NCBI RefSeq assembly: GCF_024298765.1
Contig: NZ_CP101211.1
Reading direction: 5' to 3' (one strand)
DNA length: 64,000 nucleotides
DNA from: Escherichia coli
GTDB taxonomy: Bacteria > Pseudomonadota > Gammaproteobacteria > Enterobacterales > Enterobacteriaceae
Positions within the stretch are counted from its first letter, which is position 1. Every line of letters begins with the position of its first letter. The position numbers were made by a program. Positions 15,001 to 18,000 of this stretch are shown piece by piece.

Positions 15001-18000
15001 AGCTTGCATATTTAACTCCCTTAATCGCCAAACTGGTGTTCTGTCCTCATGCTGGCCTTCAGTTCTGGGCTGGGTTGCTATCTCTTGCTCCCATAATGCG
15101 AAATGTATCTGCTGATACAGATTAACGTCATATTCCTGTATGCCGGTCTGCCGACACCAGTGCTTGGGCTATTTTCGGTCATAACAAGACCTGGCGAGAG
15201 ATTTACTCAGGGCGTGGTGTGACTGAGCAGCAGCTGGGGCACTGTCATCCGCTTGCAAATTTAACCCCCTTAATCGCCAAACTTGGGTTTTGTCCTGATG
15301 CTGGCCTTCCGTTCTGGGCGGGGTTGCTATCACTTGCTCCCATCATGCGAAAAGTGCCTGCTGATACAGATTAACGTCATATTCCTTCATGCCGGTCTGC
15401 CGACACAAATGCACGGGCTTTTTTCGGTCCTTACAATACCGGGCAGGAGATTTAATCAGGGCGTGGTGTGACTGAGCAGCAGCTAGGACACTGTCAGCCG
15501 CTGGCAGATTTAACCCCCTTAATCGCCACACTGGGGTTGCCTCCTGAAGTTGGGTTTCAGTTCTGGGCTAGGTTGCTAACTCTGCTCCCATAATTCGTAG
15601 TGGGCCTACTCAAGAGATTAACACCTCATATCTTTAGACTGGACTGACGACAACGATTCACAGTTAGGAAACGTAAATCAGCACACCGGTGAGATAGATT
15701 TTAGGGTCTAAGCAAGAAATAGGGTAGGCGTGAAGATTCATTAATGGAGCTCATAACGTCAAAGCGTAGAGAAGTCGACAAGAATCGTGGTTTAAAAAGA
15801 ATGAGCATTAGGTATGGACTAGAGAGTCTGAGCTCTCATCTGCAAGTTAAGCTCACAAAAAATCATAAAAAAGTAAACAAACATTAGCTTAGGATTGAAA
15901 CAAAGGATAGAATTGTACGTATAACAATGAAATGGACGCATTATGCGTAAAGTTTACATATATGCGTAAAAGTCGGTTTTCAGTGCAAAAAGGTCATAAC
16001 CATGAATTTACTTGAAAAGATCGCCCTCGTTGGTCAGCGCATGAAAAGCGAGCAGATTTCTCTTAAGGAATCTCTGATGGCTTCATCAAGAGTATCTGTT
16101 TCTGATGATAGTGTTGATGGTGTTGATAGACTGATCTACAACCACTGTTTAAATAAAAAAAATCTCTCTGATTTTTTTGGGAAGTCACGAGTAACGTTCA
16201 ATAAAATACTTTCGGACTTAGAAGAAAAAGAACTTGTTGGTGCACCTATTTATCAAAACAAAAATCATCTTTACACCCGCTGGGATGTTCAAAAAATAAT
16301 GGATGCCCTGGGTTATCCCAAGTACCGCGATCATTACTTTAGCAGAGCTATTGTTACTCAGAATCATAAAGGCGGTACAGGGAAAAGCACTACATCTGTA
16401 GCTTTAGCAGTAGCAGCTGCTTTAGATCTACAACTGAATGCACGTGTATTAATGATCGAATGGGACCCACAAGGTTCGATTGGAAGCAGCATGATTCAAA
16501 GTGTCTCAGAAGATGATGTCTTCCTTACAGCAATTGATGCAATCCTTGGAATTTATGAAGAAAATTCTGAGTATAAAAAATATTTAGATTCAGGATTCTC
16601 TGAAGAAGAAATCATCACTAATATGCCTTTTTCAACGCATCTGCCAAACTTGGACGTGATAACGGCATTTCCGACAGATGCTCGTTTTAAAGATAAATAC
16701 TGGCAATGTTCTAGAGAAGAACGAACGTCTTTGTTACTACGTTTCAAGGAAGTTATCTTACCGGTACTGAAGCAGAACTATGATTTGATTATTATAGACA
16801 CTCCACCTGAAGATTCACCTTTGATCTGGGCTGCTGACGAAGCGGCCGATGGGATTCTTGTCGCAGTGTCACCACGTGAATATGATTACGCCTCTACTAC
16901 AGACTTCATGCTTACAATAAGTGAAAGGTTTAAACAATCACCAAGTAAGGGCGATAATTTAAAATGGTTCAAAGTTCTTGCTGTCAATGTTGATGACAAA
17001 AGTCCATATGAAAGAATAGTTTTGGATAAATTAATCAGAACTGTTCAGGACCTTTTGATGTCCGCTAACATAAAAAATTCTGAAGCATTTAAGGCAGCTG
17101 CTTCCAAAGGGCGTACAGTGCTTGATATCAAAAAATCAGAGGAACTTTGTTCCGCAAAGCAACTTGATGTCGCAGAAGAATCTGTATTACAGGTATATCA
17201 ACAATTTATAAATGAAATAAAAAGTTTTTCAGCTAAGCAAGGAGTTAACGCATGAGCGATGAGCAACATATCGGGAATGATAAATCTCGATATTTAAACG
17301 CACCAAAGCGGACAGAAGTCGGTCACCGTTCAGGTCTTGCGGGTTTGAAAACAGCACCTCGCATAAAAAAGTTATTCACTCTTCATAAGGGCCGAAGACT
17401 TGAAGCGGAACATGTGATTGTTCCAGCCCAGAGAGTGGAGAAGGAGACCTTAGTCCATCCAGCAAACCCACGAAATCAAGAAGCCCTTACAGATTATTCT
17501 GTTAGAGATATTCTTAAGCAGATTGAAGAAAGAGGGGTCGATACCGAAGGGATCGCTGTAAAAAGAGATGGGGTTTATTTATTAATAGAAGGAAGTCGCA
17601 GACGTTTCTGCTGTATAAAGGCAGAAAAGGATCTCCCCCTGTGGGTACTACCGGATGAACTAACCGAAGATGATATAAATTCAATTATATCCGCAGCACA
17701 AACATCTCGAAAATTTTCATATAGAGAAGTTGGGTTTCAATTTATCAAGAAAATGGAAGAAAAGGGATTTTCTACTAATGAAGAACTCGCAGCATATCTT
17801 GGGATTAGTCATGTATCGGTAGCCAAAAGAATCCAGGCGGCCCGTATTGACGAAACATTGATCTCTTTATTCCCGGATTATGAAGGAATACCGAACTCCT
17901 ATTATAGTCGCTTGTCTCGTTTACAGAAATATGTGCAAAAAAATCTATTTCCTTTAGATGAAGTAATAGATAATGTTAAAGAGGAAACAAAAGATTTAGA

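Follow-up and report, generated by a model that had tools for sequence, protein, structure and literature searches.

What does the DNA immediately upstream of parA do in the Par1 (parAB) operon of IncHI2 plasmids, and does the operon's own ParA act on it? The 64,000-nucleotide stretch of Escherichia coli DNA analysed here (the window) belongs to the backbone of an IncHI2 plasmid. Plasmids of the IncHI2 and IncHI1 types rank among the major vehicles of resistance to multiple drugs, colistin (mcr), and heavy metals, and the orthologous Par1 module of R27 is the chief stability determinant of that plasmid. Autoregulation by type Ia ParA proteins is textbook knowledge. The par1 operon neighbours trhC/traC within transfer region Tra2, and more than 1100 sequenced plasmids carry the par region at an identity of at least 95%. 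Its genes and the likely translation signal are the following.

16002 to 17255, plus strand: parA, encoding a type Ia ParA of 417 residues
17252 to 18256, plus strand: parB, encoding a P1-ParB-like protein of 334 residues with an HTH plus a C-terminal dimer domain
15990 to 15993, plus strand: likely ribosome-binding site AAGG, 8 nt 5' of the ATG, as read from the sequence

The parB gene is directly 3' of parA, and its start overlaps the parA stop codon. The parA start at 16002 given by the first-pass annotation agrees with the open reading frame (16002–17255), which RefSeq records annotate identically. In the alignment, relatives have a purine-rich stretch at the position matching AAGG. An Rfam scan of the whole window gave no matches.

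The same annotation had placed an operator candidate upstream of parA, in the form of an 11-nt direct repeat with a spacing of 20 bp, or two helical turns. A repeat is present at that place, but its exact unit is the 10-mer TATGCGTAAA at 15942–15951 and 15961–15970, with a start-to-start distance of 19 bp; the 11-mer TATGCGTAAAG has a single occurrence, with TATGCGTAAAAG standing at the second copy. The window contains four exact 10-mer direct repeats 10–30 bp apart (this pair and three others), compared with 1.1 ± 1.2 in Markov-simulated sequences, and matches to TATGCGTAAA with at most one mismatch are not enriched (7 found, 4.9 expected). As about one close 10-mer repeat per window is expected by chance, the repeat by itself is not beyond chance. 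The exact 10-mer is not conserved even among IncHI2 plasmids, since the first copy is TATACGTAAA in the R478-like lineage; in IncHI1-type lineages, TTTAA instead of AAA comes after the second copy. The two copies are the right arms of two neighbouring inverted repeats. What had been described as direct repeats is really a set of five hexamer boxes in alternating orientation, with the consensus ACRYAT/ATRCGT and a span of 15917–15967. They are laid out as one half-site and two compact inverted repeats, referred to as B and C, with centres 19–20 bp apart.

15917 to 15922, plus strand: box 1, ACGTAT, half-site having no conserved partner; identity 0.94
15936 to 15941, plus strand: box 2, ACGCAT, left arm of inverted repeat B; invariant in six lineages
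15943 to 15948, plus strand: box 3, ATGCGT, right arm of inverted repeat B, within the first repeat copy (15942–15951)
15936 to 15948: inverted repeat B, ACGCAT-T-ATGCGT, boxes 2 and 3
15956 to 15961, plus strand: box 4, ACATAT, degenerate left arm of inverted repeat C; identity 0.81
15962 to 15967, plus strand: box 5, ATGCGT, right arm of inverted repeat C, within the second repeat copy (15961–15970); identity 0.94
15953 to 15970: inverted repeat C, TTTACATATATGCGTAAA, boxes 4 and 5

The spacers of the inverted pairs are 0 bp (boxes 4–5), 1 bp (boxes 2–3), and 20 bp (boxes 1–3 and 2–5). Box 1 is the core of TACGTATA (15916–15923), which had been called a palindrome. That 8-mer is an imperfect one, as only TACGTA, or the imperfect 12-mer TTGTACGTATAA, is palindromic; it is also a lineage-specific variant, box 1 being ACGCAT in all five other lineages. 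Box 3 is ATACGT in the R478-like IncHI2 and Citrobacter lineages, box 4 is ACGTAT in IncHI1 and ACGCAT in Citrobacter, and box 5 is ATACGT in IncHI1. The outer-arm TTT of site C is not conserved and gives way to GTATAC or GTGTAC in relatives. The hexamer TTATGC of P1 ParA is found in the window at 15941–15946, overlapping box 3, and its inverse GCATAA occurs at box 1 in all but one of the five other lineages, the exception being pCFR-4109 with GCATAG; the window has GTATAA.

We then compared six lineages (two IncHI2, IncHI1, two Citrobacter, and Pantoea/Leclercia), whose ParA proteins are 88–100% identical. The pairwise identity is 0.92 in the box columns versus 0.59 in the other 130 upstream columns, and the variation within boxes consists of transitions only, at hexamer positions 3 and 4. 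Unlike the repeat alone, this box-specific conservation indicates that the feature is real. In the 278-kb IncHI2 plasmid, the cluster is the single 60-bp stretch with at least four boxes and the sole location of compact palindromes of this type, and inverted repeat B is the only perfect ACRYAT-N-ATRCGT palindrome; this uniqueness points to local rather than global control. Hence, of the proposed operator candidate 5' of parA, the conserved operator-like element stands and the direct-repeat architecture does not.

Promoter prediction had been suggested as a check. A position weight matrix (PWM) scan covering eight orthologous upstream regions yielded a conserved candidate.

15885 to 15890, plus strand: predicted −35, TAGCTT (TAGCGT in relatives); pairwise identity 0.91
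15908 to 15913, plus strand: predicted −10, TAGAAT (in relatives, TACAAT or TACTAT), separated from the −35 by 17 bp

The aligned TAGCTT-17-TAGAAT pair is the top or a near-top candidate in each lineage, and in the −10 columns T1, A2, A5, and T6 are invariant while positions 3 and 4 vary. A generic consensus scan for promoters and terminators did not report this pair. Its own promoter, TCGACA-16-AAGAAT at 15775–15802, is not conserved, and its minus-strand hairpin is merely palindrome B. From the PWM scan we infer that the par1 promoter is at 15885–15913 with a weak −35; the predicted hexamers would imply a transcription start near 15920. A possible alternative −10 is the invariant TAAAGT at 15948–15953. 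Because the boxes begin straight after the promoter candidate, they would extend over the transcription start and the initial ~50 nt of leader. A repeated and inverted motif is therefore found overlapping the predicted par promoter or leader.

We next asked what the protein itself suggests. The Walker A sequence of ParA, KGGTGKS at residues 123–129, is the deviant Walker A (KGGxxK[ST]) of the ParA/MinD superfamily, and Pfam assigns AAA_31 (2e-20) and CbiA (2.5e-10). An N-terminal extension of ~110 residues precedes Walker A. In an AF2 model built from a 47-sequence alignment (pLDDT 92.8), this extension contains a winged HTH with helices at 52–59 and 63–75 and a beta wing at 83–91; an earlier model from nine sequences, in which residues 27–95 had pLDDT below 50 and were unreliable, is superseded. 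Foldseek matched the model over its full length to Vibrio cholerae ParA2 (TM 0.83/0.87, rmsd 2.9 Å, 416 columns) and to P1 ParA-ADP (TM 0.75/0.79). ParA2 is also the closest solved relative by sequence (E = 5e-37), and the identity to P1 ParA is ~24%. A profile of the N-terminal domain against PDB sequences gave nothing significant, a Pfam-level sequence test likewise, and a homologue search with the N-terminal 115 residues returned fragments only. As modelled, the protein is a type Ia ParA whose N-terminal domain forms a winged HTH, and the full-length structural matches bear out the HTH extension attributed to it at first pass.

Hexamer motifs mediate the repression that type Ia ParAs exert on their own promoters (PMC8465637, PMC9178275). 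Judged from sequence comparison, the box cluster is probably the ParA autoregulatory operator of the IncHI2 Par1 operon. We infer ParA as the binder, repression as the outcome, and a co-repressor role for ParB. ParA dimers would contact the boxes through the N-terminal winged HTH, with the recognition helix at about residues 63–75 (SRVTFNKILSDLE), and binding would be cooperative. Bound ParA would obstruct RNA polymerase or early elongation, with ParB as co-repressor alongside it, and the repression would hold ParA and ParB levels within the range required for partition.

More distant relatives have other boxes. The Klebsiella/Raoultella and Providencia ParAs, 64% and 61% identical to this one, carry the recognition helix SRNTFS[R/K]I versus SRVTFNKI here, and their lineages have different boxes in the same position (GTGCAT/ATGCAC, in Klebsiella as a perfect 24-bp palindrome); we count this parallel change of helix and boxes in favour of the operator reading, although it does not tell ParA from ParB, as the two proteins vary jointly across the sampled lineages. 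The 41–47%-identical ParAs (L020–L022) have no upstream architecture in common with this region, and a family-wide operator model was not obtained.

Could ParB be the protein that binds the palindromes, at an extra centromere-like site or at a ParB operator in the style of type Ib systems? The answer depends in part on a second repeated element.

12066 to 15594, plus strand: tandem array of ~15 units of 249 bp, candidate centromere (parS)

Most units carry the core ATTTAACCCCCTTAATCGCCA, with unit 11 degenerate. The core is 19–21 nt long, nearly invariant, and found in all lineages; it contains the B-box TCGCCA and resembles A2-A3-B2 of P1 parS as annotated in the P1 record. It bears no likeness to the ACRYAT boxes and is a motif separate from the operator. 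All cores are at 12066–15528, the last one ending 357 bp before the predicted −35, and the rest of the plasmid, including the sequence 3' of parB, gave no core even with up to two mismatches allowed. Another segment of the array unit, CATAATGCGAAATG, was considered as kin of the operator and dropped because, unlike the core, it is conserved no better than the rest of the unit. In the classical type Ia layout the centromere is downstream of parB; here the candidate array is upstream of parA, and in Klebsiella-type relatives arrays flank both sides.

The upstream position of the candidate centromere is a type Ib-like layout and speaks for ParB, to which an HTH dimer suited to inverted repeats may be added. 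We also counted for ParB the outer arms of site C (TTTAC...GTAAA), which we take to recall, loosely, the arms of V. cholerae parS2, but the TTT in them is the part that is not conserved. The HTH and dimer domains of ParB are P1-like (Pfam PF08775; match to P1 ParB 1zx4 over residues 150–330, E = 4e-16), and the sequence conserved in the array is P1-parS-like, unlike ACRYAT; the array core is thus the likelier ParB target, as far as the motifs tell. Type Ib ParAs lack the winged HTH that the ParA model has complete. Compared with a type Ib-style control, in which ParA is small and HTH-less and the repeats ahead of parA are both centromere and operator, bound for repression by the centromere-binding protein, the Par1 system has a full ParA N-terminal domain and differing motifs. 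Binding of the palindromes by ParB is accordingly unlikely.

Another reading is that the boxes serve a regulator other than a Par protein, encoded by the plasmid (such as a transfer or global regulator) or supplied by the host. ParA is a putative binder, and the operon is inside Tra2, which leaves room for such a regulator. A global regulator should have more sites, but the 278-kb plasmid holds no second such cluster, and in the Klebsiella-type lineage the boxes change along with the Par proteins. PurR and TyrR boxes and V. cholerae parS2 presumably do not fit the operator boxes in spacing or orientation. In R27, parA and parB expression is independent of temperature and of the transfer regulator HtdA (PMC7366339). 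We regard this reading as quite improbable.

Alternatively, the conserved block might be a mere core promoter and leader, or a leader RNA hairpin for mRNA stability or translation, with no dedicated repressor. The boxes are at or past the predicted start site, a 5-bp hairpin is possible in ACGCAUUAUGCGU, and between IncHI1 and Citrobacter site C changes symmetrically at two positions (ACGTAT-ATACGT versus ACGCAT-ATGCGT) so that the palindrome stays perfect. Against this, RNAalifold gave a consensus of only −1.8 kcal/mol with zero compensatory pairs, box 3 alone changes from ATGCGT to ATACGT in the R478-like and Citrobacter lineages, which breaks the pairing with invariant box 2, and site C of IncHI2 and Pantoea has two mismatches. 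Nor does a promoter need five copies of one hexamer family; this reading is very improbable. That the direct repeat is a functionless coincidence is scarcely credible despite its chance-level frequency and lack of enrichment, being largely refuted by the strong box-specific conservation, maintained while the flanks diverged to ~59% identity, together with the palindromic organisation and uniqueness of the cluster.

Returning to the ParA operator, two extensions are conceivable, which together we hold to be rather doubtful. IncHI-type ParA may read its operator unlike the P1 and F proteins, through three sites 19–20 bp apart with 12–13-bp palindromes, and the operator may also act with the adjacent array as one centromere-plus-promoter unit. 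If the former were true, two winged HTHs would touch adjacent half-sites, or the HTHs of different dimers would share one palindrome; if the latter were true, the joint unit would couple partition-complex assembly to par expression. The proposed IncHI2 operator adds a natural variant with which to study promoter reading by type Ia ParA dimers, and the operator and candidate centromere are specific points of attack for strategies of plasmid curing or incompatibility. Nowhere in the literature searched, with Lawley & Taylor 2003 and Sherburne 2000 outside it, is a par operator or centromere of IncHI plasmids described.

Most likely, the IncHI2 operator is an ordinary, uncharacterised case of a well-known control, and no finding contradicts autoregulation by a type Ia ParA. 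The P1 parOP system is alike in having a type Ia ParA with a winged HTH, a P1-like ParB, degenerate hexamers in both orientations that reach through the leader toward parA, and the hexamer TTATGC/GCATAA in common. The layout annotated in the P1 record is similar, with a ParA operator that extends from just after the −35, over the −10 and leader, as far as the start codon of parA. The two differ in spacing: in the best P1 pair 28 bp separate TTATGC from GCATAA, with other pairs 26–28 bp apart (PMC8465637), whereas the IncHI2 arms abut (0–1 bp) or have 20 bp between them. P1 has one parS site, 3' of parB, and the IncHI2 candidate parS is a ~15-copy array 5' of parA. In the overlapping-inverted-repeat model for F, P1, and P7, inverted hexamers 26–29 bp apart form overlapping pairs (Boudsocq et al. 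2021). Such spacing is not found here, where the spacers are 0, 1, and 20 bp, while the same script returned 28 bp for the P1 control; a 26-bp centre-to-centre distance here would set the partners on opposite helix faces.

The F system (sopOP, or PparABF, the operator of SopA = ParAF) is alike in having several direct and inverted hexamer copies across its promoter, a type Ia ParA whose autorepression is boosted by ParB, and a tandem array, sopC, as the centromere. It differs in the hexamer (CTTTGC), in the 27–28-bp inverted spacing with three dimers over 87 bp, and in the position of sopC downstream of sopB, and its sequences are unrelated to those of IncHI2. ParA2 of V. cholerae chromosome 2 (PDB 7npd/7npe/7npf), the closest solved ParA by both sequence and structure, belongs to a chromosomal system, and no description of its operator was found in the literature searched. 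Closest as a system is Par1 of R27 (IncHI1), reportedly the subject of Lawley & Taylor 2003: the operon is orthologous, ParA is 89% identical, and the boxes and array core are the same, but the R27/IncHI1 array has 29 cores 52–54 bp apart versus ~15 cores 249 bp apart in IncHI2.

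The feature upstream of parA is real, and a five-box inverted-repeat operator describes it better than the direct repeat of the first-pass annotation. We built an alignment of the 160-bp parA upstream regions of eight plasmids, which together cover six lineages (the window, R478-like IncHI2, IncHI1, two Citrobacter, and Pantoea/Leclercia), with ParA identities of 88-100% to the window's protein. The positions in the window are as follows.

12066-15594, tandem array of ~15 units of 249 bp (units about 12124-15594)
15917-15922, box 1, ACGTAT (ACGCAT in every other lineage)
15936-15941, box 2, invariant ACGCAT
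15943-15948, box 3, ATGCGT or ATACGT
15956-15961, box 4, ACATAT, ACGTAT, or ACGCAT
15962-15967, box 5, ATGCGT or ATACGT
16002-17255, parA
17252-18256, parB

Among the six lineages, pairwise identity is 0.92 in the box columns versus 0.59 in the remaining 130 columns, which bears out the suspected conserved operator-like element. Within boxes, only hexamer positions 3 and 4 vary, and the consensus is ACRYAT. Boxes 2 and 3 form the compact inverted repeat ACGCAT-T-ATGCGT, and boxes 4 and 5 form another, which is perfect in Citrobacter (ACGCATATGCGT). Hence, the two direct repeats first noticed are the right arms of adjacent palindromes. A direct repeat is indeed present before parA, but its exact unit is the 10-nt TATGCGTAAA (15942-15951 and 15961-15970) rather than an 11-mer, which occurs only once, the second copy having an extra A; the spacing is 19 bp, not 20 bp. 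The 10-mer is not conserved even inside IncHI2, as the R478-like lineage has TATACGTAAA as first copy, and in IncHI1-type lineages the second copy has TTTAA in place of its AAA tail. TACGTATA (15916-15923), taken earlier for a palindrome, is not perfectly symmetric and arises from a C-to-T change in box 1 that is specific to this lineage. In the window, four pairs of exact 10-mers lie 10-30 bp apart, versus 1.1 +/- 1.2 in simulated sequence, and TATGCGTAAA is not enriched within the window, so the repeat alone is within chance; for the feature as a whole, chance is excluded by the conservation of the boxes across lineages.

A generic promoter scan turned up no conserved candidate. Scoring every orthologous sequence with a PWM yielded one that is positionally conserved. 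Its predicted -35 is TAGCTT or TAGCGT at 15885-15890, followed after 17 bp by a predicted -10 of TAGAAT, TACAAT, or TACTAT at 15908-15913 with invariant T1, A2, A5, and T6. Transcription from this promoter would start near 15920, and the boxes would then cover about +1 to +48. Another possible -10 is TAAAGT (15948-15953), which is invariant. Whichever predicted promoter is used, the boxes would overlap either the core promoter or the start of the transcribed region. An unannotated ORF of 47 very basic residues (MELITSKRREVDKNRGLKRM...) at 15744-15887, between the array and the predicted promoter, is probably spurious, since the region is poorly alignable with IncHI1-type relatives.

We then considered what recognizes the boxes. 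The element is most likely an operator through which ParA autoregulates the IncH Par1 operon, and several indirect points favor ParA as the binder. Type Ia ParAs repress their own promoters via hexamer motifs (PMC8465637; PMC9178275). The window's ParA carries a KGGTGKS Walker A motif and an N-terminal extension of 110 aa, and sequence comparison ranks V. cholerae ParA2 (E = 5e-37) and P1 ParA (E = 3e-12) as its best relatives of solved structure. A first AF2 model, built with nine sequences, was set aside for its unreliable N-terminal domain. The model built with 47 diverse homologues (pLDDT 92.8) contains a winged HTH (helices 52-59 and 63-75, wing 83-91) and matches ParA2 with TM 0.83/0.87 over 416 alignment columns and P1 ParA-ADP with TM 0.75/0.79 over 420 columns. 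These matches indicate a complete type Ia ParA, and the N-terminal HTH attributed to it earlier is thus supported. The P1 hexamer TTATGC is present in box 3, and four of the five other lineages have its inverse GCATAA in box 1. In Klebsiella, Raoultella, and Providencia plasmids, whose ParAs are 61-64% identical, the recognition helix SRVTFNKI becomes SRNTFS(R/K)I, and the boxes at the same position are GTGCAT/ATGCAC, including a perfect 24-bp palindrome. Since ParA and ParB diverge jointly in the sampled lineages, this co-variation does not discriminate between them. ParB, which matches the HTH and dimer-domain fragment of P1 ParB (E = 4e-16), has a much better candidate target in the parS-like core of the array, which we count in favor of ParA at the boxes. 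A global regulator is unlikely: in the whole plasmid, assembled from the window and the other 214 kb of pR18.0877_278k (identical over the compared region, same coordinates), the region upstream of parA is the single 60-bp stretch with at least four boxes and the sole place with compact palindromes of this type, which argues for a local, operon-specific regulator. Expression of R27 parA/parB is independent of temperature and of the transfer regulator HtdA (PMC7366339). A leader RNA hairpin as the reason for the conserved block is not supported, as the consensus energy is only -1.8 kcal/mol, compensatory pairs are absent, and single-sided box changes break the pairing.

The parAB locus is the Par1 module of IncH plasmids; Par1 of R27 is reported as the main stability determinant in work cited in PMC4489591. 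Many IncHI2 plasmids, pAPEC-O1-R and pR18.0877_278k among them, carry the surrounding 2.7 kb at 100% identity, and identity is at least 95% in all except two of the 1127 matching plasmid records. The gene order is traC/trhC, the 249-bp tandem array, parA, parB, and four minus-strand genes. The pAPEC-O1-R record has a parM module after the parB region; this second, type II partition module (parM and likely parR) occupies 11763-13450 of the pAPEC-O1-R region, ~3 kb downstream of parB, and about 21362-23049 of the window as projected by constant offset. IncHI2 therefore shares its double par arrangement with R27.

The array is unannotated in the RefSeq records examined. In 14 units the core TTAACCCCCTTAATCGCCA is intact or differs at a single position; one other is degenerate. 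The 21-nt core ATTTAACCCCCTTAATCGCCA is the sole strongly conserved part of the unit and alone is conserved between lineages. The array shows no sequence relationship to the operator boxes. IncHI1 has 29 copies of the core spaced 52-54 bp apart, Citrobacter 7 copies with 56-bp spacing, and Pantoea 11 with 54-bp spacing; the IncHI2 unit is about five times longer. In the Klebsiella/Raoultella type, AAAACAACCCCCTTGTTCGCAG (co-varied core ACAACCCCCTTGTTCGCAG) recurs every 67 bp in arrays flanking parAB; the array before parA has up to 42 copies, and a further one follows parB. Core arrays in plasmid regions of relatives are as follows.

L002, 2390-4691
L003, 4456-4810
L004, 4135-4694
L005, 3316-4569 and 7332-7556
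L006, 1766-4600 and 7315-8277

The inverted arms of the core co-vary, from TTAA..TTAA to ACAA..TTGT in the Klebsiella/Raoultella type. The core ATTTAACCCCCTTAATCGCCA follows the same plan as P1 parS (segment A2-A3-B2, ATTTCAAGGTGAAATCGCCA, in the annotated record), with one direct and one inverted A-box and a B-box, TCGCCA, that is identical in both; the array is thus probably the Par1 centromere. Each of units 2-4 (12301-13056) is identical to its counterpart in units 5-7 (13057-13812), indicating a recent 756-bp triplet duplication. Unit 11 (14536-14762) is strongly divergent, with four core mismatches (TAAAACCCTTTATTCGCCA) and a body unrelated to the other units; it divides the array into two blocks that are separate in TRF (12124-14554 and 14735-15594).

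By position and composition, the IncHI2 sequence resembles a type Ia operator and departs from the F/P1/P7 model of inverted-orientation hexamers 26-29 bp apart (PMC8465637). Inverted box pairs at that distance are absent before IncHI2 parA, where spacers are only 0, 1, or 20 bp; the same script recovered the 28-bp spacing of the P1 control. Upstream of a 47%-identical ParA in another relative's plasmid (L021, 2860-2950), we observed a single parS-like core AAAACAACCCCCCTTGTTCCCG and TTTTAC/GTAAAA hexamers; one inverted pair of these has 29-bp spacing, which fits the F/P1 rule, whereas the IncHI2 operator does not. In the P1 record, the annotated ParA operator runs from just after the -35, across the -10, and through the leader to the start codon, a layout similar to that predicted here. 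The classical type Ia centromere lies downstream of parB, whereas the candidate here is upstream of parA. The probable IncH Par1 operator is a new and uncharacterised case of a well-known type of control, of interest mainly for its non-canonical box spacing and the neighboring giant parS-like array.
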